Assembly: GCA_016199525.1 (NCBI GenBank) | Contig: JACQGL010000048.1 | Coordinates: forward strand, 630 to 64,629 | Length of the DNA: 64,000 nt | Reading direction: 5' to 3' | DNA from: Armatimonadota bacterium | Lineage (GTDB): Bacteria > Armatimonadota > SYMT01 > JACQGL01 | Shown: positions 4,755-61,106 of the stretch, one piece after another | Layout of the letters: every line of letters starts with the position of its first letter | Position numbering within the stretch: position 1 is the stretch's first letter | Notes under the pieces: generated by a model | What the model saw: only the letters and a program-made list of their open reading frames with translations | Told to the model about the DNA's origin: nothing | Databases searched by the model: none | Made by a program: the position numbers and the translations under genes

Positions 4755-4794
4755 ACTCTTCAGGAACGCGGGCGGCCGACGGGCGCCCTACTGA

Positions 4795-4800: not shown

Positions 4801-5110
4801 CTGCCCGCGCATAGAGAACGCACGCAGAATGGGGAGGCCAGTGCCGCAAAGCACAAGCGAGCGACCAGGGGCTGGCAGCCTTATAGAGCGTCGGGATTGT
4901 GCGTGACAGGGCTGATCAGATCCATAACGGACCGCTTCCGGCGGGCGCCGTCCGCGAGGACTATTGGTGGCAAGTGTCCAGGCCCTCGTGTAGAGCTGCG
5001 GGGCCCTGGCAGCATGAGCGACGAAGGACGCGTGACCCCGCCGACGCAGGTCCCGTAGTCCGAGTTCCTAGCCTCGGACGTAGCAGGACGCCTGCTTGGT
5101 CGCTTAAGGT

Positions 5111-6142: not shown

Positions 6143-6169
6143 AGTTATAAAACATAGCCGCTTTGCAGG

Positions 6170-6455: not shown

Positions 6456-6750
6456 GCCCACATACTACCATCCCGAACCCAGAGTTCATAACACCCTTCA
6501 GGGCGTGGCTCAGGGCAGCTTCTGACTCCTGCACTCTGTCTAAGTAGCAGCTCAAAAGTCCTCGCAGGCGGCTGGCCCGCCCGTAGGCGCGACCGGCCGC
6601 AAAGACTTCTGACCACCTACTTAGTGCACGTAGCCTGAACCCGGGCTGTGTATCATCGTCGAGGAACTGGAGGACTTCGGGGGTTATCATCGGCGACGGC
6701 TAAGGTGATCGTAACACACGGCCCCGGCCGCGGTACTGCTGCCAAGACGG

Positions 6751-8496
6751 CTACACCACTCCCCGGCGGGGGTTTGGGCCGGAGCGATCTGCGCGGATCG
6801 GCCGCACAGTTACCACGTTCTCCGGCTCGTAATCCAGCAGCTTCAGCCAGTCCTCCTGGGTATCGGACTTAGGGAAGATCTCGTTCTCTTTGTACTCCAG
6901 CCGGATGGCACGCTGGAGGTCCTCCAGGCTAACCCCTTCCTCCAGGTTGCCGGTGTCTATCGCCCGGCGAATAGCCAGGTCCTTGGCACGCTCCACCACG
7001 GACATCAGCAGCGCCCCCGAGGTGAGGTTCCGCCAGTAGAGCCGCTCCACACTGCCGTTGCGCAGGTGCACCTCCACGAACTCTGTTTCCTCCTCGCGCC
7101 GCCAGAGGTAGCGGATCGCCTCCTCGATCAGGGCCTCCCGCGCCGCCTCGGGGCCGCCGTGCTTGCGGACGGCAGCGGCATCCAGGGGGATCTGCGGGTG
7201 CAGGTAGATGCCCAGGATTTCTTTGCTGGCCCTCCGGTCCGGCCGCCCCACCTTTGCCTTGCGATCGATCCGCCCCGGCCGGAGGATGGCAGGGTCGATA
7301 TAGTCCGGGCGGTTGGAGGTGAGCAGCACGACGACGTTCTCCAGGGAAACCAGGCCGTCCATCTCCGCCGCGAACTGGGGCACCACGGTGTTGGAGATAT
7401 TCAGCCACCGGCCGGAGCTGCGCGTCCGCAGCAAAGATTCCGCCTCGTCGATAAACACGAAGACGAGGTAGCCTTCGCGCGCCTTCTCGCGCGCCTGGGC
7501 AAAGATCTCCCGCACCATGCGCTCGCTTTCTCCGAGCCACATGTTGAGGATCTTCGGGCCGCTGATGTACATGAAGTACTCTTTAACCTCGCGGCCGTGG
7601 CGCTGACCATACTCGCGCGTGAGGTTGTAAGCGGTCGCCTTGCCGATCAGCGTCTTACCGCAGCCCGGGGGACCGTAGAGAAGGATCCCTTTGAGCGGCT
7701 TCTTTTCGAAGCGGGCGTAGAGTTCGGGGTGCAGCAGAGGGAGCTCGATGGTATCCCGAATCAGCTGGATGACCTCTTCCTGGCCGCCCACCTTCTCCCA
7801 GGGGATGTCGGGCACTTCCTCCAGGTAGTAATTGCGGATTTCTCGCTGCGGGAAGTGCTCCAGCGCCACGCGGAAGCAGGGATCCATCCGTATCTCGTCC
7901 GCCACTTTGAGAGGGGTATCGGCCAGATCGGCGCTGCGCACCACCACCCGGCCGCTCTGCCCCATTGCATCCAGAGAGACGCGCAGTCGCCCACCCTCCA
8001 GGAGCTCGGCAATCTTGACGATGGGGCCCTGCGTGGCATAGCCCAGGTCCCCGACAATGGCGTAGGCGTCGTTCAGCTTGATGCGCGTACCCACCTTGAG
8101 GGAAGCGGCGTTCAGCTTGGGGTCGATATTACTGATGAATTCCACATCCCCCAGCGCGACGCTGGCGACGCTCTCTTCTAGCAGCCCAAGGAACGTGCCC
8201 ACGCGGTTGGCCGGCGAGGTGAGTTTCTGGTAAGCTTCCTCATATTCGGCGATCAGCTTTTGCGCTTCCTGAAACTGCCGCTCGTCCACCTCCAGCTGGT
8301 GGCGTAGCAGCAACAGGTACTGGCGCACCCGCGGGTCTTCGTTGGTGGCAGATTGAAGAATGCGATCCAGCAGGCTGAGCGCGCGGAAGGCGGTCTCCGG
8401 ACCACGGGGGCCCGCCTCATCTTCCTGCCACCAGGCGCTGTGGCGCTCTTCACGGGGATCGCGCGGCTCGTGGTAGCGATCATCTCGCTTGGACAC
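6751..8496 (-). CDS. mpa: Proteasome-associated AAA+ ATPase (Mpa/ARC)
   Basis: 581 aa with a GTG start. It has an N-terminal coiled coil (QFQEAQKLIAEYEEAYQKL), an OB-like region and Walker A GPPGCGKTLIGKA, followed by ..FIDEAESL.. and ..SNRPDYIDPAILRPGRIDRK. Confidence 0.9.
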   Translation of the reverse strand: MSKRDDRYHEPRDPREERHSAWWQEDEAGPRGPETAFRALSLLDRILQSATNEDPRVRQYLLLLRHQLEVDERQFQEAQKLIAEYEEAYQKLTSPANRVGTFLGLLEESVASVALGDVEFISNIDPKLNAASLKVGTRIKLNDAYAIVGDLGYATQGPIVKIAELLEGGRLRVSLDAMGQSGRVVVRSADLADTPLKVADEIRMDPCFRVALEHFPQREIRNYYLEEVPDIPWEKVGGQEEVIQLIRDTIELPLLHPELYARFEKKPLKGILLYGPPGCGKTLIGKATAYNLTREYGQRHGREVKEYFMYISGPKILNMWLGESERMVREIFAQAREKAREGYLVFVFIDEAESLLRTRSSGRWLNISNTVVPQFAAEMDGLVSLENVVVLLTSNRPDYIDPAILRPGRIDRKAKVGRPDRRASKEILGIYLHPQIPLDAAAVRKHGGPEAAREALIEEAIRYLWRREEETEFVEVHLRNGSVERLYWRNLTSGALLMSVVERAKDLAIRRAIDTGNLEEGVSLEDLQRAIRLEYKENEIFPKSDTQEDWLKLLDYEPENVVTVRPIRADRSGPNPRRGVV

Positions 8497-15756: not shown

Positions 15757-16512
15757 TCAGCGGACCACGAACGTCGGATTGCGGCGCCACTCGTTATCCT
15801 CATAGGAGCGCCAGGTCTGTTCTGGTTTCCTCCAGGCCGCGTGGCCATCCGCATAGGCGATGTTGCCGCCTCCCTGATGCCGTGGCAGGAAGCGAGCTTG
15901 CTGCCGATAGTCTGGCAGAGCAGCGTCATCAAAGGCCCACGGCTGGGGATACAGCCCGCCGCGCGATGGCAGGCCGCTGGCGCGTCCTGCATCGCCGATG
16001 AGGATGAATCGCGCCGGATAGGTGATGCTGCCCAGCTTGGTCGTTTCGTTGAACCCGAAGTCAGGATTAGCTTGATACCACGCCTGCGCATTGGCTCCGG
16101 GTAGATTCGCCTCGTTGTGGTTGTTGCCGTAATCTGTCGTGAACCACATACGCGGGCCAGCCGGAGGCCAGGCGGGTGCAGAAGGGCACTTGAAGATATT
16201 CAGTTCATGGATGTAGGGCCACAGCTTCGTCTTGTAGCTATACGGAGCGCGGGCCTCATAGGTGTCGGGCGTGCCGGGTGGGGCTGTTCGCTCCGTTACA
16301 TGGGGCGGGAACGTCTCGTCGTTGTCCTGGAGATACATCATGTAGGCCGTGCCCAGATGCCGCACGTTTGAAAGACAGGCCGTCTTCCGGCCGGCCTCAC
16401 GAGCCTGGGCGAACACAGGAAACAGGATCCCCACCAGAATGGCGATGATCGCTATCACCACGAGCAGTTCGACCAGGGTGAACCCCTTTGCATGTGAATA
16501 GTTTGGATGCAC
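15757..16512 (-). CDS. Prepilin-type N-terminal cleavage/methylation domain protein, DUF1559 family
   Basis: Start re-set to GTG 16512 (GAGAGGAG 7-8 nt upstream): VHPNYSHAKGFTLVELLVVIAIIAILVGILFPVFAQAREAGRKTACLSNVRHLG. This is the class III signal/methylation motif. The C-terminus ..HQGGGNIAYADGHAAW is typical of DUF1559. Confidence 0.85.
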   Translation of the reverse strand: MHPNYSHAKGFTLVELLVVIAIIAILVGILFPVFAQAREAGRKTACLSNVRHLGTAYMMYLQDNDETFPPHVTERTAPPGTPDTYEARAPYSYKTKLWPYIHELNIFKCPSAPAWPPAGPRMWFTTDYGNNHNEANLPGANAQAWYQANPDFGFNETTKLGSITYPARFILIGDAGRASGLPSRGGLYPQPWAFDDAALPDYRQQARFLPRHQGGGNIAYADGHAAWRKPEQTWRSYEDNEWRRNPTFVVR

Positions 16513-16767
16513 CGATTTTCTCCTCTCTTGAAACGCATCCTCTGTGAAGTCGACGATGGGCCTGGCAAAACGACCCCCGGCCGCGGGCCCTGCCGGGGGT
16601 CGCCGCAACAGATGCATGAACTCCAGGTTCGTATTCCGGTCCAGCAGAGCCGCAGCGCTGCGGAAAAGTGGAAGCCAGCCATCAGGCATCTCCAAACACA
16701 GCGAGGCCCCGCATCCTCCGGACGCAGGGCCTCTCGTTGACGAGTCAGCCGTACCTGTCAAATCCCC

Positions 16768-34616: not shown

Positions 34617-35447
34617 TTAATCCACGATGGCGGACCCGAGGCCGGTCAGGAATAGAGCAACGCCCAGCCAGGGAGGGACCTTCAGCCCACCACGATGGCG
34701 TTTGGCAGGCGGCGGCGTCCCCACCGATACCCCTGCGGGCGGAGGTTGGACGCCCATCTCCGCGTGTACCTGCCGCGCCACGTCCGCCGCTGCCCGCTCC
34801 ATCACCTCCACAGGCGTCTGGCCTGTAGTCGGCGTCGCTTTCCCGGTCACGGCAATCTGGTAGATCGGGTTGCCGGTCTCGGACGCCAGTAGCTGCACCG
34901 TGGCGGTGATGCTCGTGCTACTGTCTTGCGGATTGACCTGCACTTCGTCAATACTCACCAGCAGAACCGATTGGATACCGAGACGCGTGGCGATGGTGCG
35001 CGCCTGGTTCACGTCGATTTCCCCGGTAGATGGGTCCTTCAGCTCATCGAGTTCCTCCTCGGTCAGGATACGGGACTGGAGGGCGCGCCTGACCAGCGAG
35101 GACTGTCGGGAGTAGGTGACCACCGTGAACCGGTTGGAGAAAACGATGCCAGACTTCACCTCGCGGAGGAGGTAATCCGCTAGATCCTGCCCGTCCGTCT
35201 TGGCGGCGTTGACCGCGGGGAAGACAAGCACACTAATCGGTTCCCCAGAGCGGATCGGGGGCGGCGGCTGGAAGGATCGTTGGACAGGCGCCTCCGCTTC
35301 AGCTTCGGTACCCGGAGGGGGAACGCCGCTATCGCCGCGGACGGGCTGCTCAGGTTGGGGTTCAGCCTGCGCCTGCACAGGTGCGCCGCCGGCAAGGACG
35401 GCAAGGACGGCCAGAACGACTATCCACGCGTTTCGCATCGTCTGCAT
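34617..35447 (-). CDS. Secreted protein with an LpoB/CsgG-like alpha/beta domain and a C-terminal TM helix
   Basis: Signal peptide MQTMRNAWIVVLAVLAVLAGGAPVQAQA. The core ISVLVFPAVNAAK..LADYLLREVKSGIVFSNRFTVV..ATRLGIQSVLLVSI follows the CsgG/LpoB-type pattern. C-terminal anchor WLGVALFLTGLGSAIV. Confidence 0.6.
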   Translation of the reverse strand: MQTMRNAWIVVLAVLAVLAGGAPVQAQAEPQPEQPVRGDSGVPPPGTEAEAEAPVQRSFQPPPPIRSGEPISVLVFPAVNAAKTDGQDLADYLLREVKSGIVFSNRFTVVTYSRQSSLVRRALQSRILTEEELDELKDPSTGEIDVNQARTIATRLGIQSVLLVSIDEVQVNPQDSSTSITATVQLLASETGNPIYQIAVTGKATPTTGQTPVEVMERAAADVARQVHAEMGVQPPPAGVSVGTPPPAKRHRGGLKVPPWLGVALFLTGLGSAIVD

Positions 35448-35488
35448 TCTGCTCCTCCTGATCCGGCCCGCATTCCGGGCAGGTCAGC

Positions 35489-37375
35489 TTATTGTGGACG
35501 GAAGGTAACACCCGGCCCGGTCGGCGGCGGCCAGAGAATGAACAGGTCGAAATTGACGAAGAACCAGAGACCATCCCCAGGCTGAAGCCGGGCTGTCCGG
35601 GAGAGCCGTATGTAGCCCAGTCCGGGCTGGTTCGGGTCGAAACGCCAGATACTGGATCGGATCCATCCGACGCGCAGCGCCGTGTCGAAATCGACCATCT
35701 GCCCGGTGCTCTGCCGGACAACTTTCAGATCCTGGAGGTTTACGGGCCAGGGGCTCGCATTGCCCATCTGGTTCCAGCCGGGGCTTGCGCTTGTAGAGAA
35801 CACCTCGCCTGGGGGAATGTCCACTGGCGTGGCATCCTGAAGTTCCACCACACGCCCCGTGGCGCCCAGCAACCGCACCCAGAAGCTCTCCCCGGGCCGC
35901 ACATGCTCGAGCTCGCGATACATCAGGCCCTCTGGGTCCCAGCGAACGGCCTGGAAGCTGTCGGCATCCAGGCCGAGCGCCACTTCCGGAGTGTCATCTA
36001 CGAACGAATAGGGGATGGTAATCATCCGATACACGTTCTGCAGGAAAACACGGTCCTCGTGAGGGATGACCACGTTCCGATTAACCTGCACCGGCCCTGG
36101 GCTGAGGATCACACTCACTTGCTGATCGCCGTAGGCGACCCCGGTGGGTCTAAGCAGCCAGTCCGTCGTTCGCTCGAAGACCCCCTGGCCAGCAGGATCC
36201 AGGTCCCCCAGGGGCACGAGCAATTCCTGGGGCTCCGGCAACTCAACGAGCTCCAATATAGGCACCGGGGGTAAGGGAGCCACCCGCGGCAGCTGTGGCA
36301 GCTCGAGCATCGCCTCTACGTCCTGGATAGAAAGATCCGACCGCAGGTTGGTTGCCCAGGTATCCAACCGGAACCCGTCCGGCGTCGCCCGCCCATCAGT
36401 GAGCGGCAGCACCGAGAGCGCCTGCACCGAGCCGAGGATGTCCGTGCTCCGGCTATGGTCCGCTACGCCCGCCCCCAGGTAGGTTACGAATGTGCGCCTT
36501 TGTCCGCTGAGGAAATTGCGGGGAAGCCAGTAAAGGCCCACCGAGCCATTGCCTCCCGCCGCCTCCGGCAGGAGCAAGCTCTGCCCCGGGTTGGGTGTGA
36601 AGTCCCAATCGGGCAACGGCCCTACCCCAGTGCCGGTACCGCCGATGAGCGGGGTATAGCCACCGAACACCAGGCGATCCGGCGGCGTTGTATCCAGCCC
36701 GCGCAAGACATTCTGGACGAACGAGTACGGGCTCGGATCTGGAAAGAAGGCAAACCACTGGTCCGGGATAAACCCGCGCGTGAACTCACGCTCGCGGGAG
36801 ATGAGCCCCACCTCCGGCACCAGGAACGGGTTGGTTACCAGATTGTTACTGTCGGCGGCAGGATCGAACGCCACTCGCAGGCCGATCACGCGCCGTGCAC
36901 CCTGGTTAAGAACCTGGTACTCCAGCCGAACCAGGTCCCGCACCAGAGTCAACCTCTGGATGACGAGGATATTGATCCCCTCTGAATTCTCAGTATCCTC
37001 AGGGAAGCGCCAGCTGGAAACGACAGACTGGCCATCGGGGGTGACGGTCGGTGGAAGGACAACGGTGCCCCCACTCCCTCCGAAGATACCCGTACTCGCC
37101 CCCCCCTCCTCTGCGATAGACTCCACCCAGAGCGTGACCTTGTTAGCGGTGAAGTCCGCCCGAGTAATCAAGAGGGAGTCATCCCGCGTTTCCAGCGGAT
37201 CGCCTTCCACCCGGACAATCTGCCAGCGGTGATCGCTATCTTGCACGGTGGCTTTGATGTAGCCGTTCTGAATCACCTTGGTCTGGGCGGACGCCGGGTA
37301 GGCGGCCAGACAGCCCCAGGCAACCGCGATCCAGAGAGCCGCCCGCCAGGTGCGGCCGGAGCCGGTGCGTCTCAT
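35489..37375 (-). CDS. Large secreted hypothetical protein (628 aa)
   Basis: Start re-set to ATG 37375: MRRTGSGRTWRAALWIAVAWGCLAAYPASAQ signal peptide. The mature part looks beta-rich. No family recognised. Confidence 0.65.
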   Translation of the reverse strand: MRRTGSGRTWRAALWIAVAWGCLAAYPASAQTKVIQNGYIKATVQDSDHRWQIVRVEGDPLETRDDSLLITRADFTANKVTLWVESIAEEGGASTGIFGGSGGTVVLPPTVTPDGQSVVSSWRFPEDTENSEGINILVIQRLTLVRDLVRLEYQVLNQGARRVIGLRVAFDPAADSNNLVTNPFLVPEVGLISREREFTRGFIPDQWFAFFPDPSPYSFVQNVLRGLDTTPPDRLVFGGYTPLIGGTGTGVGPLPDWDFTPNPGQSLLLPEAAGGNGSVGLYWLPRNFLSGQRRTFVTYLGAGVADHSRSTDILGSVQALSVLPLTDGRATPDGFRLDTWATNLRSDLSIQDVEAMLELPQLPRVAPLPPVPILELVELPEPQELLVPLGDLDPAGQGVFERTTDWLLRPTGVAYGDQQVSVILSPGPVQVNRNVVIPHEDRVFLQNVYRMITIPYSFVDDTPEVALGLDADSFQAVRWDPEGLMYRELEHVRPGESFWVRLLGATGRVVELQDATPVDIPPGEVFSTSASPGWNQMGNASPWPVNLQDLKVVRQSTGQMVDFDTALRVGWIRSSIWRFDPNQPGLGYIRLSRTARLQPGDGLWFFVNFDLFILWPPPTGPGVTFRPQ

Positions 37376-37788
37376 CTCCACTGCGTTCTCCCTGGTCAGA
37401 AGGATCATTTCGAGGTCCCACCCGTCGGGAAAGCCGGATGCCAGACGCCGCCGCATGGCAGTCCGCACCGGCATATTCACCCCCGGGCCGACCGCCCCTT
37501 CCCGGGTCGACGTCGGAACGATCCGGATGCAGGTCTTACCGGCTCGTTTGACCTCTGGGTTAAGCGAGCCATTGCGCTTCGGCACCACCAGACAACTGTT
37601 CCTGAAGGTCGCGCCGTTGTTCCTCCTCCACTCCGCCACAGGCAGGCCTGCTGGCAGCTACCGGGGTGGCAACCGCCAGCCACGCACCCACCATTACCCA
37701 CCGGGTTCGGCGCTCACCGAACTTCACCGCGGTGGAACTGCTTCTCGCCCCAGGGGCCGCTCGTCGCCGCGGGTGTTCGATCGCCGTG

Positions 37789-39819
37789 CTAGTTCTTCCG
37801 GCCCCCTCTGCCCGAGCGACCTGCACCACGGGGAGGCGGAGGCGGCCCAAACAGGGAATTTCGCACCTGCACCGGAGCGCTGAAGACGAAGCCGTTCGGC
37901 CCCGGCGCCAGCCGATCATCCCTGCTGCGTACCCCCACCGCCAGGAAGATGAACTCGTCGGTGCGGAGCTTGCCTCTTAGGGCATCCACACTGGTGAACG
38001 CCTCCTCGTCCGGCCCACCCAGATCGGGCGGCAGAACGTTCTTCGTGGCCGCGATAATCGTGCTGGCTGAGTTGAAATCAACTTCCCGACTCACCGCCAG
38101 AGCGTATTCGTTGCCGCCCGCCACGGTGGTGAAGTCGACCGTAAGATCAGCGAGATCCACATCCGTAGGTGGCACCGTGTTCGTGGGGCTGGTGATCTCC
38201 GGCGCCGGCAGGAAGGTAGCCAACGGCGATGCCGAAGAGAGAGGCCCCATTAGATCCTCGGGATCCGGTGTGCCATCGCCATTCAGGTCCTGCTCGAAAT
38301 GCCACGCCGTGGCCACCTGATAGCGGTACTTCTGGCCCGCGATAAGACCAGGGACATCCTCCACATCCTCACGATCCCCCGCAAGGTTGGTGAAGTCGGG
38401 CGGGCGAAACGCGGTGCCCGGCGTGCCGTTGAAGGCGCCGACCACCGTATGCACCGTGGTTTCGGTGTCATCGAAGCGGTGCAGGCCATCCCCATTCACC
38501 GCGCCCACGACCTGGACGGCCCCCAGACCTCCGGGGTTGGACCGCCAGATAACGTATTGAAGCACCTGCTCGCTGAGAACCTGGCGCGGCCTTTTCCAGG
38601 TGACGCGAATGCCAGTCGGGCTCCCTGGGGCCAGCTGGACCGCCTGTGCTTCGGTGCCGAAGGCAGTAGTCCCGCCCTTCGACCCGCCGCCGAGCGCCAG
38701 CAATCCGACAAGCAGCGCGCCGCCGACGAGCAGCTTGAGGGCGGATTTGCCAATGCCCCCGCCGCCCCCGCCGCCGCTCGCAGGCTCCTCCACCACCACT
38801 GGGGGAGAGCCACCCGGCTGTCCGCTCTGGCTGTTCGCGGCCAGCACAGCTTCGCCCGGATCCTCCTCACTGGCCACCAGTGCCTCGATCTGCCTGCCCC
38901 TGGCGGACAGCCGTACCTTCTCCGGGGGCAGGACATTCGATCCCCGCCGGGACTCTTCACGAGGCGGAGGGAAATCCCGGAAGCTGAAAATGGCGCGTAC
39001 CCTGTCCTCGGGTCGAACGCCGCGGTAGTTCTCTACAATCCGCCCGCTGGTGGTATCAGCGTCCACGCTGGTGGCCCGCACGCGGCCCACCAGCTCACCC
39101 AGGCGCAGGACGATGAACTCCATGCCTCGCCGGACGCCCTGCCGGATGCCCACGTTCATAAAGGCGACTTGCTCGTTCTCACCCACCACGCTGGTATTGA
39201 GGATCGTTCCGGTCGGTAGACGGAACCGATCCATCTGCTCGCGCGCCCGGAAGGCCGCCCGTGCCAGCGCTTCCTCGAGGAGCACATCCGCGTCTCCCGT
39301 GAAGCCCACGCGCGGCTGACTTTGTCCGAGGCCGACGGCGCCATTCATCAGCACGCCGTTCCGGACGTCCTCGACCACTACCCGAAGGCGGACGAACGCT
39401 TGCGCAGGGTTCGCGGTCACCCGCGCCTCTTCGATGGTCCCGTACACTACCCCGATGGCGCTGAGGCCAGCGGCAATCTGCGAGCGGGCCACCCGGTCAA
39501 ACGGGGGTCGGATCCCCAGTGCCTGGATCCGGCCATGCACTTGGTCGTCCGAGACAACCTCCCAGTTTCCAGAATCGAGCAGCGCCAGGGCCACCTGCGC
39601 GCTGGCCGTGCGTCCCAACAACGTACCGCCCAGCGGCGTGTTGTTGTTGAAGTCGAGCATGTAGACACGCGGCGTGGCAAGCGCCGAAACGATGTCGGCG
39701 GGACCGGCCTGGGCCTCGGCCCTCCGGATGCCAATCCCGGCGAAGGTGGAGAGAGTCATAGCCAGGACCAGGAGCCGCGCCACCCAGCGGCTCGCACGGT
39801 GATGGCGGATGCGCTTCAC
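37789..39819 (-). CDS. Multidomain envelope protein: signal/anchor, LpoB/CsgG-like domain, small beta-barrel domain, Gly-rich segment, TM helix, Fn3-like C-terminal region
   Basis: Start re-set to GTG 39819 (GGAGGA 6 nt upstream): VKRIRHHRASRWVARLLVLAMTLSTFAGIGI. It contains ..VYMLDFNNNTP..LLDSGNWEVV..AIGVVYGTIEE.., then GGGGGGGIGKSALKLLVGGALLVGLLALGGG, then ..IRVTWKRP..VLQYVIWRS.. Confidence 0.7.
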   Translation of the reverse strand: MKRIRHHRASRWVARLLVLAMTLSTFAGIGIRRAEAQAGPADIVSALATPRVYMLDFNNNTPLGGTLLGRTASAQVALALLDSGNWEVVSDDQVHGRIQALGIRPPFDRVARSQIAAGLSAIGVVYGTIEEARVTANPAQAFVRLRVVVEDVRNGVLMNGAVGLGQSQPRVGFTGDADVLLEEALARAAFRAREQMDRFRLPTGTILNTSVVGENEQVAFMNVGIRQGVRRGMEFIVLRLGELVGRVRATSVDADTTSGRIVENYRGVRPEDRVRAIFSFRDFPPPREESRRGSNVLPPEKVRLSARGRQIEALVASEEDPGEAVLAANSQSGQPGGSPPVVVEEPASGGGGGGGIGKSALKLLVGGALLVGLLALGGGSKGGTTAFGTEAQAVQLAPGSPTGIRVTWKRPRQVLSEQVLQYVIWRSNPGGLGAVQVVGAVNGDGLHRFDDTETTVHTVVGAFNGTPGTAFRPPDFTNLAGDREDVEDVPGLIAGQKYRYQVATAWHFEQDLNGDGTPDPEDLMGPLSSASPLATFLPAPEITSPTNTVPPTDVDLADLTVDFTTVAGGNEYALAVSREVDFNSASTIIAATKNVLPPDLGGPDEEAFTSVDALRGKLRTDEFIFLAVGVRSRDDRLAPGPNGFVFSAPVQVRNSLFGPPPPPRGAGRSGRGGRKN

Positions 39820-40029
39820 GATAGGTCCTCCGTCTCGAAAGCGATGGGGAATACGGGCTAGACACGTTCGTCCGACGCGGGCGCTGTCCCCGCGAGGCCG
39901 CATATGCGGCGGAATCGTGCCGCCCGCCTGAAAGGTACGAGCACAGCGCCCTGGCCTCGCATCGTTTAAGGGTCAGGTTATCGAGTATCGTCTCTCGCCG
40001 ACCATTCAGGCGCCGGGACGCCTTGCTGG

Positions 40030-53747: not shown

Positions 53748-54197
53748 CTAGTCTGCCACCTCGACGATCATCTCGATCTCAACCGCGGCGTTTCCTGGGA
53801 GCTGGTACACCCCAATGGCGCTGCGCGCGTGCCAACCCCTCTCGGGGCCGAAGATCTCCAGCAGGGCATCCGTGGCGCCGTTGATGACCGCCGGGGTGTT
53901 ATAGAACCCCGCCGCGCAGTTCACCAGACCGAGCAGCTTCACTACCCGCGTCACGCGGTCCAGGTCACCAATCCGCCATTTCACCGCCGCCAGGCAGCGC
54001 AGGATCGCCTCCCGAGCGCCCTCGTAGGCCTGCTCCGCAGTGACATCGCCGCCCACCTTGCCGGTCAGACGGCAGGTGTTCCCACTGGTGTAGACCAGGT
54101 TCCCGGTGCGTACCGCCGGGGCGAGCTTGCCGCGCTGGTCCGGCGGCTCGCCCAGAGACCAACCCAGTTCCCGGATACGGTCTTCGATCAACGCCAT
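53748..54197 (-). CDS. RidA/YjgF-family reactive-intermediate deaminase
   Basis: 149 aa from ATG 54197 (GGAGGAG upstream): ..AVRTGNLVYTSG.. ..ARSAIGVYQLPGNAAVEIEMIVEV.. Confidence 0.85.
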   Translation of the reverse strand: MALIEDRIRELGWSLGEPPDQRGKLAPAVRTGNLVYTSGNTCRLTGKVGGDVTAEQAYEGAREAILRCLAAVKWRIGDLDRVTRVVKLLGLVNCAAGFYNTPAVINGATDALLEIFGPERGWHARSAIGVYQLPGNAAVEIEMIVEVAD

Positions 54198-54468
54198 TGT
54201 TCCGACTCCTCCTTGCCCATGTGAAAGGCAGCGGTGGATTGCAGAAGGGATGAAGGGCCAGAGACAAATGCCGCGGGGCGGCCCTCTCTGACCTCCGGTC
54301 ATTCGTCCCTCGTCCTGCGTTCTTTCCCCATCCAGCCCCCTGGTGGTGGATGCCGCCCACGCCCGCGCCAGCGGGAGGGAGAGGCCTGCCGGCGCTACCC
54401 AGGAGAGGGAGCCTCCTTCCCAACGGAAGGGAGGTTCGCAGGCGCGACGGTCGCGGCTTTCCGTCACC

Positions 54469-56799
54469 TCACTCTTCCTGCTCGGCGCGGAAGTTCGCGG
54501 CGGCGTAGACGTAGATGTTCACCACCGCCTGGAGCGCCCCTTCCTGTGTCTCCGCGTCGTTCCTTGGCGAGCCGACCACGGTCGCCAGATAGCGGTTGGG
54601 CGTCATCAGCACCGCCACGCGGCCGTCCACGGTGATCGCCTGGAACAGCTCGTTGCGCCCCGTATCCCCCTTGGGTACGTTGAGCAGCACGTAGTGGGAG
54701 CGATAGATGGCGTGGCTGAGCGGCAGCGACTCCGGCTGCCGCCCGAACGTGCGGGCCATCTCCTCGCGGAAGGCGCGATCGAATGCCGTTTCCGAGAAGT
54801 CCGCCCAGATGAGGCCGCCCCTGCTGACATACTTGCGCAGCTCCTCGCGCTGCTGGTCTGTGAGGCGGAACGGCTTGTGGCCGCTGAACACGAGCACCGG
54901 CGAGTTGCCCAGCAGCGCCGCGCGAATCACGCGATACTGGCCGCCCAGGGCGACTTTGATCTTGGTGCGGCTGTTGATCTCGTCCAGGATTTTGCGTCGC
55001 GCCAGGTCATGGTACTGGTAATCGCTATCCGTGATTGCGCTCGGCAAGGCGAAGCTGCCCGTGGTGGCCACGTAGACGCCCGCGGGGGCGTGCCGCCCGG
55101 GGATGCCAATCCCTTCTCCGCCGGGACCCACGCCCCGCCCGGTGCCCGGGCCTTCGCCGCCCGGGCCCCCCACGCCACTGGCCGGCCCGAGCCCGTCCAC
55201 GCCGTGCTGCCTGCCGGTGTCGAGCCCGTCGCCCGTGCCCCGAAAGCTTTCGGGATCTCCGCCGCCCGAGCCCCCGTCACCGCGGCGAACGCCGCCGAAC
55301 TCTCTCGCCGTGCCGGAGCCGCCCGGGCCGCCGGGGCCATCACCGACACCGGTGCCTAGCCCGCCCCGAACGCTTTCGGGGCCTTCACCACCGCCGCCCG
55401 GCCCTCCCTGGCCCTCGTCGCCCAGTCCCGAAAGATTTCGGGACGGCAGACCGGGCGTACCAGCGCGGAACCCCCGGCCACCACTGCCGCCGCCATCTAC
55501 CGCTGGGCTACCTGGACCACCGCCGCCCCCGGGCCCCTCCCCGGAGTCGCCGCTGCCATTGCCCGGGCCCGGCAGCGTGCCCAGCCCGCCCAGGCCACCG
55601 CGCACTAGGGGACCCAGGGAGCCCGTGCCCTCGAGCGAGCCCGTCCCTCGCTGCCGGGGCGTACCTGCCACTTCGCCGCCCGCGAGCGGCACCGGCACGC
55701 CGGGGCCACCTTCAGTCACCCCCATGGCCGGCCTACCAGGCCCCACGCTGCCTGCTTCGGGCAACGGCGGCGCCGCCTTTCCATTTCCCGGCTGCTCCGA
55801 GCCGCCCGCCAGGCCCTCGAGACCAGGGGGAAGATCGATGCGGGCCATCGCTACCCGGGACGGATTCGGCAGGTCCCCGGCGCCACCACCCAGGCCAGCC
55901 GCGGGGTAGGCACCAATCCCTCCGCCCTCACCATGGCGACGGGGTGGCTCCGCCGAGGCCATGCGTGCGCTGCCCGGACCGGGCGGGGCGCCGCCCGGAT
56001 CGCCCGGTTCAGGCGCGGGCAGACCTGCCTCTCGCTTGCCTGTGCCCGCGGGATGGCCGGGCTCCGTACCCGTTCCGGAACCCGGGCCCAGCTCCCCCGG
56101 TCGCTCCGGACGCATCGCCACGGGGCTCCGCAGGGTGCCGCCCGTCCCGACGCGTCGGGACTCCTGGTCCCCCGAGGGAACGCCCGGACGAGGACGCGGC
56201 GCCTCTAGCGTGCGCGGCCCCTCTGGCCCGCCGCCTCCTGAAGAACGCGCGCCGCTCAGTTCCTCCGGCGCCGGCGGCTGGCTTGTTTCCTCGGGAGGAC
56301 GAGCAGGCGCCGCCGGCTCCTCGGGAAGGCGCGCCATCTGCGGCCCCGGCGTCTCCACGTCGGGCGGGCGCGGCACGGCGGGCGCCGGCGGCGACTTTAC
56401 GGCGGCCACCCGCGGCTTGGGCCGTTCCACCGCCACCGGTACGGGGCGGGGCGGCGGGCCCGATAGAATACGCGCCCGCTCCTGCTGGCGGCGAATGCGC
56501 AATGGCTGCGGCCCTCGCGGCGCCGGCCGTGGCTGCACCAGTCGCGTCCGGCTTGCCATCGCCATCAGTGGCGATTTGGGCGCCGGCGCCCGCCGGGGCG
56601 GCAGGAACTTGATGTTCACCATGCGCTCCGGCGGGAGCGGCGGCACCGGCTTGGTCGCCTGCCAGTGCAGATGGCCCAGGAACGCCAGCAGACCGGCGTG
56701 CAGCACCACGGACACGCCCAGGGCGATCCCGTCCAGCGGCTCCGACCGCGGACGGAGCGACTTGACCATCAAATCCGATACGTGTCTCAGTAGAAGCAT
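54469..56799 (-). CDS. TonB/TolA-like membrane-anchored protein with a long Pro- and Gly-rich spacer and a C-terminal DUF4159-like domain
   Basis: 776 aa. TM helix GIALGVSVVLHAGLLAFLGHL, then PPLPPERMVNIKFLPPRRAPAPK.., then about 450 aa of G/P low complexity. The C-terminus ..PVLVFSGHKPFRLTDQQREELRKYVSRGGLIWADFSETAFDRAFREEMARTFG..LPLSHAIYRSHYVL.. matches the DUF4159 pattern as I recall it. No TonB_C-like YP..G..G motif. Confidence 0.8.
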   Translation of the reverse strand: MLLLRHVSDLMVKSLRPRSEPLDGIALGVSVVLHAGLLAFLGHLHWQATKPVPPLPPERMVNIKFLPPRRAPAPKSPLMAMASRTRLVQPRPAPRGPQPLRIRRQQERARILSGPPPRPVPVAVERPKPRVAAVKSPPAPAVPRPPDVETPGPQMARLPEEPAAPARPPEETSQPPAPEELSGARSSGGGGPEGPRTLEAPRPRPGVPSGDQESRRVGTGGTLRSPVAMRPERPGELGPGSGTGTEPGHPAGTGKREAGLPAPEPGDPGGAPPGPGSARMASAEPPRRHGEGGGIGAYPAAGLGGGAGDLPNPSRVAMARIDLPPGLEGLAGGSEQPGNGKAAPPLPEAGSVGPGRPAMGVTEGGPGVPVPLAGGEVAGTPRQRGTGSLEGTGSLGPLVRGGLGGLGTLPGPGNGSGDSGEGPGGGGGPGSPAVDGGGSGGRGFRAGTPGLPSRNLSGLGDEGQGGPGGGGEGPESVRGGLGTGVGDGPGGPGGSGTAREFGGVRRGDGGSGGGDPESFRGTGDGLDTGRQHGVDGLGPASGVGGPGGEGPGTGRGVGPGGEGIGIPGRHAPAGVYVATTGSFALPSAITDSDYQYHDLARRKILDEINSRTKIKVALGGQYRVIRAALLGNSPVLVFSGHKPFRLTDQQREELRKYVSRGGLIWADFSETAFDRAFREEMARTFGRQPESLPLSHAIYRSHYVLLNVPKGDTGRNELFQAITVDGRVAVLMTPNRYLATVVGSPRNDAETQEGALQAVVNIYVYAAANFRAEQEE
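55239..55443. repeat. Three copies of the same palindrome family inside the Gly-rich coding spacer
   Basis: 55239-55254 CCCGAAAGCTTTCGGG, 55364-55381 CCCCGAACGCTTTCGGGG, 55426-55443 TCCCGAAAGATTTCGGGA. On the minus strand they encode PESFRG, PESVRG and PSRNLSG. Confidence 0.5.
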
Positions 56800-56822
56800 T
56801 GCGCTTCCTCAGCCGGCCACCA

Positions 56823-57257
56823 TCAGCGGCGATCCGGCTGCGCCACCTCGGTCGGCAGCGCGATATTCACCAGCCCTGCCTGCTTTGCCGCGTCCATCAC
56901 CTGGACCACGCGCTCCCACACCACACTGCGATCCGCGCGCACGATCACCTGGTCCACCGGGGTCTCCCGGTGCATCGCCTTGAGCGTGCCCGCCAGGTCT
57001 CGCACCGCGATCCGGTTGCCGTTCAGCAGCACGTGCCCGCTCGGTTGGACAACGATATCGACGTCCTGCTTCTTCTGGAGCGGCTCGGCGGCCTTGGCGG
57101 TGGGCAGGTTGACGTTCAACGCATTTGATACGCCCACGAACGAGGCGCTGACCATAAAGATGATCATCAGCACCAGCACCACGTCCGTGAACGGCGTGAT
57201 GTTGATCTCCGCCATCACGGAGTGGCGCCGCTTCTTTCCGCCGTGGGAGATCATCAT
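56823..57257 (-). CDS. exbD: ExbD/TolR-family biopolymer transport protein
   Basis: 144 aa. ..AEINITPFTDVVLVLMIIFMV.. has a single TM helix and is followed by a periplasmic domain. Confidence 0.85.
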   Translation of the reverse strand: MMISHGGKKRRHSVMAEINITPFTDVVLVLMIIFMVSASFVGVSNALNVNLPTAKAAEPLQKKQDVDIVVQPSGHVLLNGNRIAVRDLAGTLKAMHRETPVDQVIVRADRSVVWERVVQVMDAAKQAGLVNIALPTEVAQPDRR

Positions 57258-57868
57258 ACCGTCGCCTCCTGGTCCGTCATCAGGTGCAGCACCTCGGTGC
57301 TCACCACCTCAAAGTCCACATCGAACCGGTTCACCCAGGTGGTGAACAGGTTGTAGGCGACCACGGCTACGATGGCCACCCCGAGACCTGCGGCGGTGTT
57401 AATGAGCGCTTCCGAAATGCCGCGCGAGACCTGGCCTGGGTTGGCGCCGGTCATTGCGGCGATCTCCTGGAAGGCATGCATGATCCCGATCACTGTGCCG
57501 AACAGGCCGATGAACGGGGCCGTGGTGGCGATCGTGCCAATCAACGGCAGGTTGCGGGTCAGGCTGGCCTGCTGCAGGGTGATGGCGCTGGCCAGCGTGT
57601 CCTTGATCTCCTCCTTGCCGCGTCCTTGCTTCGCCAGCGCCGCCCCGGCCACGGAAGCGATGGCGGATTGGCTGCGATCACAGAACGACATCGCGTCCCC
57701 CAGCCGCCCTTCCTGCATCAGCCGCGCCAGCCGCGCCAGGAAGATGATCGTATCCGTACTGGCTGCTTTCAGGCGGATGTAGCGCTCGATAATGATCGCC
57801 ACCATAGTGATGGAGACGGCCAGCAGGATGTACATCGTAAAGCCGCCCTGGTTCAGGATTGCGAACAT
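57254..57868 (-). CDS. exbB: ExbB/TolQ/MotA-family proton channel protein
   Basis: 204 aa. ..LIGTIATTAPFIGLFGTVIGIMHAF.. ..ISEALINTAAGLGVAIVAVVAYN... There is a 4-nt overlap with exbD. Confidence 0.85.
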   Translation of the reverse strand: MFAILNQGGFTMYILLAVSITMVAIIIERYIRLKAASTDTIIFLARLARLMQEGRLGDAMSFCDRSQSAIASVAGAALAKQGRGKEEIKDTLASAITLQQASLTRNLPLIGTIATTAPFIGLFGTVIGIMHAFQEIAAMTGANPGQVSRGISEALINTAAGLGVAIVAVVAYNLFTTWVNRFDVDFEVVSTEVLHLMTDQEATV

Positions 57869-58145
57869 TCACGTCCTCCGGATTGAGGTCGGGGTGGTCC
57901 GGGTGTGGGGTTTCTGGTTGGGAAGGGAACCTCGCCCCCGGCCCTTCTCTCCCGCCTGGTTGATGGTCTTGACGAACGAAACAGTGGGCGCCAGCGCCGG
58001 GCGCTGCGCGCAGATACGGGCTGTTTGAAGGTTCGAACGTTTATGGAACTTGGCAGCCAATGCACGCAGTTTACTTCCCAACCTCCCTCAGCACTGCAAC
58101 CTTTGCACCTGCGAACATGCCAATCGATCAACCTGCCAGGCGCCA

Positions 58146-61106
58146 TCACGGGGCGACTGGCTTTTGCCCCAGTCGCTCCTGGGCGCGCATGGCCCACTCG
58201 GTGTCCTTGTAGGTTTTGAGGCACTCTCCCCAGGCCTCCTGGGCCTCCTTCTGCTGCCCGAGCTGCGCGAAACACTCACCCGCCTGGTACTGCGCCTGGG
58301 CGGCCATCGCCGCGATTTCCTGGTTGTCCTTGTAGCGCCCAAACAGGGTCGCGACACGCAGGTAGGTCCGCCGGGCATCCTCGTACTTCTTCTGCGCATA
58401 GAGAGCGTCTCCGGCGAGCAACCCCGCCTCCGCGCCAATGCGGCCATAGGACGTGCCGAACAAAGGCTCCAGAACGGTGACCGCCTTCTCGGGCTGCCCC
58501 TGGCGAACGAGCACCTGCCCCAACGCCAGCCGCGCCTGGGCGACCAACCACGGAATGACCTTGTCGTCTGCCGGCGGCTTCAGTTCTGCCACCCGCTGGA
58601 GCTGCTCCGCCGCCGGTCCCAGATCGTTCTTCTGAAGCAGCGCCTCACCGGCGCGCAGCCGGCACTCCGTCAGTAGGTCGCTCTGCGGGTAGCGCTGCAC
58701 CACGACCAGGAACGCTTCCGCGGATCCCGCCCAGTCTTTCGCCTCATGCAGGCACCAGCCCAGCTTGTACCAGGCCTTATCCGCCAGGTTCCCCGCCTGC
58801 GGCGAGCTGGCCACCGTGCGGTAGCCCTGGGCGGCCTCGGTAAACTTACCGGCCTTGTAGTCCTGCTCGGCGAGGCGGAAGAGGGCGTCCACGCCCAGAG
58901 GATGGGCGGCAAACTCGCTGGCGAGCCGCGCGAAAACGGGGCGAGCCTGATCCGGCTGGTTGTCGTCCGTGAAGGCCCAGGCCATCTCGTAGAGCGCTTC
59001 CGGCACCGCCGTCGACTTCGGGTACTTGGCAACCAGCTGGTTGAAGGCAGTGATAGCGTCCGCGTACTTGTTCTGGCTGGCCAGCACGGTTCCGATACGG
59101 AGCATCACCGAGGGAACCATCTCTGCCGGTGGATCGGCTTTCAGCGCCGCCTGGTAAGCAGCCAGAGCCAGATCCAGCTTCCCATCCTTCTCGTAGGCGC
59201 TGCCGATGAGGAACTGGGCGCGCGCCAGGCCACCCTCGGGGGCCTTTTCCAGTGCCTTCAACGTCTCGGCCAGTAGATCGCTCTTCCCCGTGGCCGCATA
59301 GCAGAGCGCCAGGCCGGTATGCGCGGCCCAGACCGTATCACCCCGGGGCGCACGCTGGAGCACCTGCTGGTAAACCTGGATGGCAGCCGCGTAGCTGCCC
59401 GCCGCCCGCAAAGAATCCGCATTGGCGAGTAGAGCCTGCGCGGCGGCCGGCTTATCGCCGTACTTCTCCAGCAGGATCTTCTCCACATCGGCCGCTTCCT
59501 TGCTCTTCTTCTGCTCGCGCAGGATAGAGAGGAGCGTGGCAGCGGCGGTGGAGGCGTGCGTGGAATCGCCGTGCTTGTCCAGCACCTCGCGCAGGGCGGG
59601 GACGGCGTTGTCCGGCTGCTTCAGGCGATAGTACGCCTGGCCGATAAGCAGCAGCGCCGCGGCGCGCGCGTCCGGCTCGAGTTCCAGCTTCAGCAGCTCG
59701 CCTAGCTGCGCCACCGCCCCGATGGCGTCGTCCCCCTCGAAACGGCACTGCGCCAGGCCGATGGTCGCCATCGCCGCCAGCGGTCCCTTCGGATCCCGCC
59801 GCATCACGGCGGTGAACTGCTCCTCCGCGGCGGGGAACTGGCGCTGGCGGTAGAAGGCCACCCCCAGGCCATAGGTGGCCTGATCCACAACCACCTGCTC
59901 TGCCGGTTTGGCATCCAGCACCGCGCGGTAGAGCCGCGCCGCGTCCGCAGGGTTGCCGGTATCGAGGCGGAGATCCCCCAGCCGGAGTCGCGCGCGCAGG
60001 GCCAGGGCGCCCGCGCCTCCATCCTCCGCAAGACGCTGGAAGGCGGCCGCCGCCTGCTCCACCTGCTTGAGCTGGAGCCGCGCCATGGCCAGCCAGTAGA
60101 GCGCCTCGCGCGCCACGGCAGGATCGGGATCGCGGCTGCCCACCTCGTAGCGCTCCGCGGCCGCCGCGTAGTTCTTCTCGTAGTAATAACAATCCGCCAC
60201 TCGCAGGGGTACACTGGCGGCCAGGGACGACTTCGGGTAGGAGGCAGCGACCGCCTCGAACGCCGCGCGTGCCGCCGGATAGTTCTTCTGATAGAAGGCT
60301 GCCCACGCGAGCCCCATCTGCGCGGCGGGCGACTGCTCACTCCCCTTGTAGGCCTCCAGCACCTTCTGGTAGGCTTTCTCGGCGAGCGCGTACTGCTTGA
60401 GCCCCAGCAGCGTCTCCCCCGCGCGCAGGAGCGCCTCTGCCGCCACCTCTGCCTGCGGATATTTCTCCGCGACCTGGAGCCATGTAGAAGCCGCCAGCTC
60501 GGAGTTGCCCTTCCGGTAGTGGCAGAAGCCGAGCGAGTAGGTTGCCTGCGCTGCCTGCTCGCTCGCCGGCCAGCGCTCCGCCACCGCCTGGTAAGCGGCG
60601 ATCGCCTCGTCCCATTTCTCCAGCTGGAAGTAGCACTCGCCCAGCCAGTTATAGGCAATCGGCCCCAGCTTCTCGTCCTTGTCCGCCAGCTGCTTTGCTT
60701 CCAGCAGGTGGGGCAGCGCCTTGTCATACTGTTTCGAGTAGAAGTGGCCGAGACCGAGGCCAACCAGCGCCTCGGCGCGGAAGTTCATATCTGGCTTCTC
60801 CGCCAGCGCCCGCTCGTAGGCGGCGATCGACTCCGGGTACTTGTTCAGCCGGAGATAGGCCTCGCCGATCCGCAGCCTAACCAGGTGCGTCTTCGCGTGC
60901 TGGGGATATTCTTTGAGGTACTTTTCGTATTCCTGAATGGCCAGCTCGTACAGTTTGCGGCCGAACAGCTCAGTGGCAAACAGGTACTGATCCTCCGCCA
61001 TCCGGCCGTCCGCCGATTGCGCTCGCGCCGCCAGCGGCGTGAAATAGAGCAGCGCGACGAGCAGGCCGCAGGTAAGATACTGGAGCTGTCGCATTCGGTG
61101 CTTCAT
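58146..61106 (-). CDS. Very large secreted TPR-repeat protein (about 986 aa)
   Basis: Start probably ATG 61106 (MKHRMRQLQYLTCGLLVALLYFTPLAARAQ signal peptide). It carries more than 20 YbgF/CpoB-like TPR units (..YxLGxCYxxxGxxxxAxxxFxxVxxxYPxS..). Confidence 0.85.
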   Translation of the reverse strand: MKHRMRQLQYLTCGLLVALLYFTPLAARAQSADGRMAEDQYLFATELFGRKLYELAIQEYEKYLKEYPQHAKTHLVRLRIGEAYLRLNKYPESIAAYERALAEKPDMNFRAEALVGLGLGHFYSKQYDKALPHLLEAKQLADKDEKLGPIAYNWLGECYFQLEKWDEAIAAYQAVAERWPASEQAAQATYSLGFCHYRKGNSELAASTWLQVAEKYPQAEVAAEALLRAGETLLGLKQYALAEKAYQKVLEAYKGSEQSPAAQMGLAWAAFYQKNYPAARAAFEAVAASYPKSSLAASVPLRVADCYYYEKNYAAAAERYEVGSRDPDPAVAREALYWLAMARLQLKQVEQAAAAFQRLAEDGGAGALALRARLRLGDLRLDTGNPADAARLYRAVLDAKPAEQVVVDQATYGLGVAFYRQRQFPAAEEQFTAVMRRDPKGPLAAMATIGLAQCRFEGDDAIGAVAQLGELLKLELEPDARAAALLLIGQAYYRLKQPDNAVPALREVLDKHGDSTHASTAAATLLSILREQKKSKEAADVEKILLEKYGDKPAAAQALLANADSLRAAGSYAAAIQVYQQVLQRAPRGDTVWAAHTGLALCYAATGKSDLLAETLKALEKAPEGGLARAQFLIGSAYEKDGKLDLALAAYQAALKADPPAEMVPSVMLRIGTVLASQNKYADAITAFNQLVAKYPKSTAVPEALYEMAWAFTDDNQPDQARPVFARLASEFAAHPLGVDALFRLAEQDYKAGKFTEAAQGYRTVASSPQAGNLADKAWYKLGWCLHEAKDWAGSAEAFLVVVQRYPQSDLLTECRLRAGEALLQKNDLGPAAEQLQRVAELKPPADDKVIPWLVAQARLALGQVLVRQGQPEKAVTVLEPLFGTSYGRIGAEAGLLAGDALYAQKKYEDARRTYLRVATLFGRYKDNQEIAAMAAQAQYQAGECFAQLGQQKEAQEAWGECLKTYKDTEWAMRAQERLGQKPVAP

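Follow-up and report, generated by a model that had tools for sequence, protein, structure and literature searches.

What does an ExbB-ExbD motor drive when the protein encoded beside it is neither TonB nor TolA? To our knowledge, for a long time no other protein was known to convey the proton energy of the inner membrane from a motor of this type to the outer membrane, and the question is raised by a four-gene minus-strand operon in a 64,000-nucleotide stretch of DNA (contig JACQGL010000048.1, positions 630 to 64,629; hereafter the window) from an Armatimonadota metagenome-assembled genome (MAG). The operon encodes a secreted giant tetratricopeptide repeat (TPR) protein, an ExbB/TolQ-type and an ExbD/TolR-type stator subunit, and a 776-residue protein, hereafter the transducer; all four open reading frames (ORFs) are present where the original prediction, a reading of the letters alone, had placed them (Table 1). 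That prediction held that a stator driven by the proton motive force (PMF) energises a non-canonical transducer, a proposal which is supported by the DUF4159 head of the protein, by conserved synteny and by an SxxxH motif in its transmembrane (TM) helix. We consider it likely that the four genes form one PMF-driven trans-envelope machine of the Ton/Tol class.

A DUF4159 head in place of a TonB or TolA domain

The sole Pfam match of the transducer at E<=0.1 is DUF4159 (PF13709), which covers most of its C-terminal globular domain with E 9.1e-20 and 71.5 bits against a cut-off of 25.9. TonB_C (PF03544), TonB_2 (PF13103) and TolA_C (PF06519) have no match at that threshold in Pfam or NCBIfam, and NCBIfam as a whole returns nothing. 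In the absence of these domains we do not file the protein as TonB or TolA; it is a member of the DUF4159 family, identical to the GenBank entry MBI3909854.1, a 'DUF4159 domain-containing protein' of an Armatimonadota MAG. The C-terminal domain had been recognised from the letters as DUF4159-like, and not as TonB_C or TolA domain III, and the profile searches bear this out.

Structure prediction followed by a Foldseek search, which had been suggested as a check, gives the same answer. Two AlphaFold2 models of the head were made, a poorer one from 7 aligned sequences (predicted local distance difference test, pLDDT, 69.7) and a better one from 17 (pLDDT 87.9; predicted template-modelling score 0.86), and both match PDB entry 4i66 first, with TM-scores of 0.70-0.78 (for the better model, E 4.7e-10 and TM-scores of 0.71/0.78). 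This entry, a crystal structure from structural genomics, is Hoch_4089 of Haliangium ochraceum, which we take to be a DUF4159 protein from its family assignment. By hidden Markov model and predicted fold alike, the C-terminal 180-200 residues of the transducer are a true member of PF13709. Hoch_4089 is a standalone protein of ~200 residues, whereas the window protein has the domain as a distal head on a TonB-like anchor. Further and much weaker matches are flavodoxin/WrbA, ThuA-like proteins, the class-I-glutamine-amidotransferase-like domain of large catalases, and CTP synthase, and the predicted fold of the head is thus of the flavodoxin-like/class-I-glutamine-amidotransferase-like kind. No vWA, TonB or TolA structure is found among the top 50 Foldseek matches of the head.

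None of the invariant columns in the 17-sequence alignment of the head is a Cys or a His, and for this reason we take DUF4159, an alpha/beta domain, to be a probable binding module and not an enzyme. The same observation led us to reject the head as a catalytic glutamine amidotransferase. We also rejected a vWA reading of the head, given that it has no VWA match in Pfam and no vWA structure in its top 50.

Within the literature that could be searched, the sole mention of DUF4159 is in a paper on the Pfam database. Other architectures in which it occurs are standalone proteins, FecR fusions, squalene-cyclase-like fusions and a BNR propeller with OmpA. Three proteins (P0053, P0061 and P0148) illustrate this range: one joins FecR to two copies of DUF4159, one runs DUF4159-CARDB-BNR/Sortilin propeller-OmpA, and one, of 2144 residues, combines VWA, an SxxxH helix and DUF4159. 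The FecR, squalene-cyclase-like, BNR-OmpA and VWA contexts are all envelope contexts; the two standalone loci (L001 and L002) gave no useful context. The association of DUF4159 with MoxR/DUF58/BatA-type clusters, mentioned in the original prediction, finds no echo here, as no such genes occur in the window or in the related loci inspected.

A conserved docking motif and a very long linker

TonB and TolA bind their motor through two elements, the SHLS motif (Ser-x3-His-x6-Leu-x3-Ser), of which the His is essential, and the motor box (Williams-Jones et al. 2025, Mol Biol Evol 42:msaf138, PMC12204202). Are both present in the transducer? Its N-terminal TM helix (GIALGVSVVLHAGLLAFLGHL) fits SHLS at S30, H34 and L41, the fourth position being H45 and not Ser. 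Compared with PDB sequences, the N-terminal 110 residues yield only chance Pro-rich matches, as is expected of a 20-residue helix followed by low complexity; because a sequence search is blind to a TonB-type anchor, the motif was tested by conservation instead. Each of the 20 full-length close homologues (695-1308 residues) has an N-terminal TM helix that contains SxxxH, a Gly/Pro/Ala-rich linker of 435-949 residues and the head at its C-terminus, and the 12 transducers taken from genome loci all share this build, with SxxxH in the helix. An alignment of the N-terminal 90 residues of 16 sequences, whose mean identity is 29 %, has just two invariant columns, the Ser and the His. Domain and motif tests thus show that the protein carries the sequence signature of TonB/TolA docking, S30xxxH34, in its single TM helix.

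The second element has a plausible counterpart. All aligned family members have an alternating-hydrophobic strand 12-35 residues past the TM helix, followed by prolines (ERMVNIKFLPP in the window; TAVEFVTFVKPPPPPP, IPIKFVKIIVPKPKP and TAVEFVTFV in relatives), and this candidate motor-box strand occupies the position of the TonB/TolA motor box. The N-terminus of TM helix and Pro-rich rod that had been read from the letters is therefore borne out, with the SxxxH motif and the conserved strand in addition. As for the start of the gene, the transducer ATG lies 23 nt after the exbD TGA (and not 24 nt, as first given), and the N-terminal 25 residues (MLLLRHVSDLMVKSLRPRSEPLDG) are kept in three homologues (P0012, P0014 and P0016), which supports the chosen start codon.

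Between anchor and head lies a linker made up of 25.7 % Gly, 17.6 % Pro and 15 % hydrophobic residues. Its proximal part is Pro-rich, with 10-15 Pro per 50 residues over aa 51-250, and its distal part Gly-rich, at 40-50 % over aa 400-550. A tandem-repeat search found no DNA tandem repeats in the region that encodes it.

Table 1. Features of the operon in the window, and of two accessory genes in related loci (numbered there by locus). aa, amino acids.
Feature	Position	Strand	Extent	Remark
Secreted giant TPR protein	58146..61106	minus	986 aa	First gene of the module
Alternative ATG of the TPR gene	61184		1012 aa
ExbB/TolQ-type stator subunit	57254..57868	minus	204 aa	PF01618
ExbD/TolR-type stator subunit	56823..57257	minus	144 aa	PF02472; 4-nt overlap with exbB
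Shine-Dalgarno-like GAGGAAG	56804..56810	minus		4 nt upstream of transducer ATG (56799); read directly
TonB/TolA-class transducer with DUF4159 head	54469..56799	minus	776 aa
Single TM helix (GIALGVSVVLHAGLLAFLGHL)	56668..56730	minus	~aa 24-44	S30-x3-H34-x6-L41
Motor-box-like alternating hydrophobic strand (ERMVNIKFL)	56602..56628	minus	aa 58-66	Followed by a Pro-rich stretch
Low-complexity linker	55111..56664	minus	518 aa (aa 46-563)	Pro-rich (~aa 51-250), then Gly-rich (aa 400-550)
C-terminal globular domain	54472..55110	minus	aa 564-776
DUF4159 Pfam match	54502-55008	minus	aa 598-766	PF13709
PD40 propeller of relatives	L004 8716-9777	minus		Also in L008-L022, L027 and L028
CarboxypepD_reg protein of relatives	L003 3347-5842	plus		Also on the JGI contig

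A stator of neither the Ton nor the Tol group

Domain and motif tests show a stator of the ExbB/ExbD type with the sequence hallmark of the proton-binding Asp. ExbB matches PF01618 with E 9.6e-34; its nearest NCBIfam models are TolQ (1.5e-35) and then ExbB (1.1e-21), and its nearest solved structures likewise TolQ (5e-20) and then ExbB (9e-14), with the GTVxGI and ALxxTAxGL motifs aligned. ExbD matches PF02472 with E 9.1e-30 and has E. coli ExbD (2.4e-14), then TolR (1.8e-8), as its nearest solved structures; its TM aspartate, in ITPFTDVVLVLMIIF (ITPFTDVV), aligns with the Asp of E. coli ExbD, ITPFIDVMLVLLIIF. The NCBIfam scores all stand below the equivalog cut-offs, at 122.9 against 221 for TolQ, 77.6 against 206 for ExbB, 93.3 against 127 for TolR and 71.3 against 153 for ExbD. 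With these scores, and with an ExbD that is closer to ExbD than to TolR, neither a Tol nor a Ton assignment of the motor is possible; by the NCBIfam models, it belongs to neither orthologous group.

The TPR protein encoded upstream consists of TPRs throughout, with Pfam TPR_6 (2.7e-72) and TPR_16 (1.1e-67) as matches and TPR_2 as well (overall E 1e-63 to 1e-72), and its N-terminus (MKHRMRQLQYLTCGLLVALLYFTPLAARA, then QS) reads as signal-peptide-like. It had been compared to CpoB/YbgF, and this holds at the level of the repeats: the NCBIfam model tol_pal_ybgF (TIGR02795) scores 308 bits over 15 separate stretches, and CpoB (PRK10803) 9e-32, which is under the cut-off of that model. Every related locus with sufficient flank has a homologue of 850-1000 residues upstream of exbB, 26-44 % identical along almost the whole length.

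The arrangement is conserved across phyla

Could the four genes be neighbours by chance? An exhaustive HMMER search with the head against representative proteins gave 935 at E<=1e-3, including 26 at E<=1e-30, whereas a word-indexed search gave just 6-9 proteins with an Armatimonadota-type head. A first contig scan with patterns from close relatives yielded no confirmed locus, and the 17-sequence head alignment is too divergent for search patterns; the scan of GTDB species genomes was based on the alignment of a sister clade (A3), whose members share 34-39 % identity with the window protein in the head. It returned 24 loci: 21 from Armatimonadota-type MAGs (labelled Ca. Zipacnadia, Armatimonadia, Armatimonadota or WS1, or unlabelled), one from Planctomycetota, one from Lentisphaerales and one from Roseburia. 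The last (L031) is a weak partial match (E 2e-4) which we treated as spurious.

Besides the window, the order exbB-exbD-transducer is found in 17 Armatimonadota-type loci, namely a JGI contig, L003, L004, 13 GTDB loci and L038. In the GTDB set, ExbB-ExbD lies directly upstream of the transducer in every one of the 13 Armatimonadota loci with enough upstream sequence; a TPR gene of ~900 residues is also present in 11 of these, and the other two end at a contig edge. The 30-kb JGI contig runs CarboxypepD_reg protein, TPR (858 residues), ExbB, ExbD, DUF4159 gene. In L003, a divergent GHMP kinase like that of the window precedes CarboxypepD_reg protein (831 residues), TPR (984 residues), ExbB, ExbD and transducer; L004 has TPR (901 residues), ExbB, ExbD, transducer and then a convergent gene of 353 residues. 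The same order recurs on a 207-kb metagenome contig (L038), the only informative locus of the metagenome scan, and the Planctomycetota locus (L029) shows TPR-ExbB-ExbD followed by a 1227-residue variant of the transducer (2307-5990) with an internal SGFLH helix, DUF4159 (7e-38) and extra domains. This variant also has an N-terminal extracytoplasmic region with a weak Filamin-like match, an Ala/Pro/Glu-rich linker and a C-terminal domain of ~200 residues without a match.

In all, more than 18 loci, from more than one phylum, keep the gene order at protein identities of 34-55 %. A head that is neither TonB_C nor TolA_III, together with this conserved synteny, means that the association of the genes is not a matter of chance, and an arrangement conserved in so many genomes is probably a real envelope machine.

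A short family in the PVC phyla

The weaker matches of the head include proteins of 380-450 residues with an N-terminal helix [S/A]xxxH, in which the His is invariant, a short Pro-rich linker and DUF4159. Their hosts, by source name, are Verrucomicrobiota, Chlamydiae MAGs, Ca. Aureabacteria and Methylacidiphilales, and we refer to them by the superphylum of Planctomycetota, Verrucomicrobiota and Chlamydiota (PVC). A profile search finds at least 485 of them at E<=1e-10, all with PF13709. Three loci (L032, L035 and L036) read TPR (~270 residues), ExbB, ExbD, ExbD, transducer, FG-GAP propeller; their ExbB has a long N-terminal extension that begins like a signal peptide. A survey of exbB-exbD synteny across phyla, proposed with the prediction, therefore comes out in its favour: the synteny holds in the 17 Armatimonadota-type loci, in the one from Planctomycetota and, with two exbD genes, in the Verrucomicrobiota/Chlamydiota-type loci.

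The heads of the short family and of the Armatimonadota proteins are homologous (hhalign probability 100 %, E 1.4e-44, 30 % identity). The alignment of the N-terminal helices places His on His, with a probability of 30 % and E 5e-4 over 24 columns only, and is no more than suggestive.

Accessory genes differ between relatives

Two further genes accompany the module in relatives of the window operon. One, adjoining it in 18 sister-clade loci, encodes a secreted six-blade PD40 propeller of 340-350 residues, either convergent downstream of the module or just upstream of the TPR gene, and its best NCBIfam match is TolB (TIGR02800, E 5.4e-80); tblastn finds no match to this TolB-like neighbour in the window. 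The other, which encodes a protein of 767-831 residues with two CarboxypepD_reg domains, immediately precedes the TPR gene in the two closest relatives whose flank is long enough. This second gene occurs neither in the window nor in the sister clade, and its product has no barrel match and only weak S-layer- and adhesin-like matches.

Among the window's other large ORFs, Pfam scans reveal no TonB-dependent receptor, TolB/PD40, Pal/OmpA, MoxR, DUF58 or VWA, in agreement with the original prediction, which had noted that no TonB-dependent receptor, TolB or Pal gene is nearby.

How the machine might work, and what speaks for other readings

Judging from synteny and from the ExbBD-TonB and TolQRA complexes of solved structure, the stator would assemble as ExbB5-ExbD2, and the transducer would dock on its rim through the SxxxH helix and the motor-box strand that follows. 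The linker, Pro-rich and then Gly-rich, could take the DUF4159 head across the periplasm and the peptidoglycan, where the head might bind an envelope partner; proton flow through the stator would then pull on this partner, or release it. The secreted CpoB/YbgF-type TPR protein may serve as a periplasmic scaffold or regulator. The coupling of transducer and motor in this scheme is suggested by genetic linkage.

To what end would such a machine work? We lean towards a Tol-like role in outer-membrane maintenance, tethering or constriction, and not towards nutrient import of the TonB type, because ExbB is nearest to TolQ, the TPR protein has CpoB-type units, a TolB-like propeller adjoins the module in one clade and no TonB-dependent receptor is nearby; indeed, none was found in the window or in any locus examined. 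This role is tentative, and it is the weakest step of the explanation. Tol-Pal has been reported only in Gracilicutes, so a terrabacterial diderm would need another system, and the host here belongs to a terrabacterial diderm phylum without Tol-Pal. We could therefore speculate, though with still less assurance, that the module is Armatimonadota's own PMF-driven system for outer-membrane tethering and constriction: the head would capture a periplasmic propeller or an outer-membrane partner as TolA-III does with TolB-Pal, the giant CpoB-like TPR protein would couple the machine to peptidoglycan synthesis, and the [S/A]xxxH-DUF4159 transducers of the PVC phyla would be the same invention, so that TonB and TolA would be joined by a third widespread class.

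Several observations weigh against a machine of this kind, or against its Tol-like role. The propeller of the relatives scores 269 bits against a TolB cut-off of 343 and lacks the TolB N-terminal domain, and PD40 propellers are common proteins. ExbD is nearer to ExbD than to TolR, and the window operon has no TolB-like, Pal/OmpA or outer-membrane protein gene beside it. A linker of 518 residues is much longer than the span of the periplasm requires. Some paralogues of the transducer (P0018 and P0020/P0170) have no motor genes nearby.

Could the transducer instead be a specialised TonB paralogue, in which DUF4159 replaces TonB_C and gates an unrecognised outer-membrane channel or receptor for the import or export of nutrients, proteins or polysaccharides? 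Its N-terminal half is indeed TonB-like, with a linker that is Pro-rich rather than helical, and the affinity of its ExbD to ExbD would fit; so would the CarboxypepD_reg protein encoded upstream of the TPR gene in the two closest relatives with flank, as a domain of this type also prefixes TonB-dependent transporters in Bacteroidota (PMC12204202). That gene, however, is missing from the window and the sister clade, and its product has no barrel match. The lack of a receptor nearby counts for less than it might, as tonB genes are often unlinked to their receptors, but neither the window nor any of more than 20 related loci has a match to a TonB-dependent receptor, plug or barrel, and without TonB_C the protein could not bind a TonB box by the known mechanism. 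We regard this reading as unlikely. A surface-motility or adhesion apparatus like Agl-Glt or GldLM, in which the motor moves a periplasmic or surface adhesin complex, is more improbable again. In its favour, the AglRQS gliding motors are TolQR homologues, PD40 or FG-GAP propellers adjoin the module in related loci, and the TPR proteins have sub-threshold matches to Tgl, GltC and PorW models, but these are generic and far under the cut-offs. The poorer head model also weakly matched the N-terminal (GIFT) domain of IFT52, at E ~0.03, a fold that is shared with the gliding protein GldG, yet this similarity was gone from the top 50 with the better model. A gliding role has been suggested for non-TonB transducers by Williams-Jones et al.; no other glt, gld or por genes occur at any locus here, and the neighbours in the window are housekeeping genes.

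The reading that is already disfavoured, and to which we give next to no credence, is that the juxtaposition is meaningless and the transducer is an independent membrane-anchored DUF4159 protein, for example an aerotolerance factor of the Bat/MoxR type or a glutamine-amidotransferase-like enzyme. DUF4159 does occur in many architectures without a motor, such as the standalone, FecR, squalene-cyclase-like and OmpA fusion forms, and some paralogues of the transducer family are unlinked to exbBD, as TonB paralogues often are to their motor. However, the persistence of the gene order over more than 18 loci and several phyla at 34-55 % identity speaks against chance, an invariant SxxxH in the TM helix is not expected of a passive anchor, and there is no MoxR, DUF58 or VWA gene and no conserved catalytic Cys or His. 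The unlinked paralogues have features of their own: P0020/P0170, P0018 and P0028 (L005 6473-10399; L007 7524-9920) carry a cytoplasmic extension of 70-125 residues before the SxxxH helix, which in P0020 is anti-sigma-like by eye and hints at a signalling variant.

Relation to known systems

How new is a machine of this design? The original prediction knew of no described function for the combination. As regards function this stands, but a paper of 2025 (PMC12204202) had published the concept itself, an ExbBD/TolQR motor with a TPR protein and a transducer that joins an SHLS anchor to a non-TonB head. Its section 8 describes motor-driven 'vWA-fold' force transducers without a known function, which were first found in Tichowtungia aerotolerans and are reported from PVC bacteria, Proteobacteria, Bacteroidetes and Rhodothermaeota. 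Each consists of an SHLS helix, a linker of ~100 disordered residues with a motor box and a head said to be of the vWA fold, and their operons contain a gene for a TPR protein, one that is tolQ-like, two that are tolR-like and then the transducer.

The window protein resembles them in its SHLS TM helix, its disordered Pro-rich linker, its non-TonB head and its place downstream of TPR and tolQ/tolR-like genes. By the published description, it differs in the head (DUF4159 against vWA), the linker (518 against ~100 residues), the number of exbD genes (one against two), the size of the TPR protein (~1000 against ~270 residues) and the host, Armatimonadota not being listed there for the class; the supplement mentions neither DUF4159 nor Armatimonadota. 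The DUF4159 loci of PVC bacteria, on the other hand, have exactly the layout of that description. Considering this shared layout, the published 'vWA' family may be the PVC DUF4159 family under another fold label, or else a parallel family on the same chassis. The idea is thus not wholly new, in that non-TonB heads on a TonB-like anchor in the same operon layout had already been published; what is new here is the DUF4159 head, the very long linker, the single ExbD, the giant TPR partner and the Armatimonadota host.

With the TonB system, the module has in common an ExbB/ExbD-type stator, an N-terminal TM SxxxH, a putative strand after the TM helix, a Pro-rich rod and linkage in an exbBD operon. 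It departs from that system in having no TonB_C and no TonB-dependent receptor nearby, a linker that is several times longer and Gly-rich in its distal half, and a gene for a giant TPR partner. With Tol-Pal (TolQ-TolR-TolA-TolB-Pal-CpoB) it shares a TolQ-like motor subunit, an SHLS-type anchor and a CpoB/YbgF-type TPR protein in the operon and, in the sister clade only, an adjacent TolB-like PD40 propeller. In contrast to Tol-Pal, the window has no TolA domain III, no Pal/OmpA-like lipoprotein and no TolB, the propeller of the relatives being without the N-terminal domain; its TPR protein is four times as large as CpoB, and its host is terrabacterial, whereas Tol-Pal has been reported only in Gracilicutes.

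The implications reach beyond this locus. DUF4159, a domain with a crystal structure but no known function, gains a concrete context as the head of a transducer, and a large, conserved family of such transducers spans Armatimonadota and the PVC phyla. The class is thereby extended to a terrabacterial diderm lineage without Tol-Pal. Experiments in cultured Verrucomicrobiota or Armatimonadota could take hold of the system at its invariant His, its linked motor, its TPR partner or the propellers nearby.

Other features of the window

The rest of the window consists of housekeeping and metabolic genes, among them those for PolA, a Clp-type ATPase, ribosomal protein S1, a class IV aminotransferase, a GHMP kinase and ABC transporters; promoter and terminator scans were uninformative. 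Directly after the transducer stop lies a RidA/YjgF-like ORF (53748-54467, minus strand; PF01042, 1.9e-12), the true start of which is probably an internal ATG (MALIEDR...), and which is not kept in related loci. Three consecutive ORFs of 276, 716 and 704 residues (34620-39903, minus strand) have a coding-like GC content at third codon positions and no Pfam match at E<0.05. A type IV pilin-like protein with an N-terminal methylation motif and a DUF1559/SBP_bac_10 domain is encoded at 15760-16761 (minus strand). Finally, this Armatimonadota MAG carries a Pup-proteasome gene set within the window (1216-8496, minus strand), made up of proteasome subunits at 2141-2971 (E 7e-24) and 1216-1989 (weak, E 7e-4), a Pup ligase at 3234-4754 (E 3e-159) and an ARC/Mpa-type AAA ATPase with proteasomal OB domains at 6754-8496.

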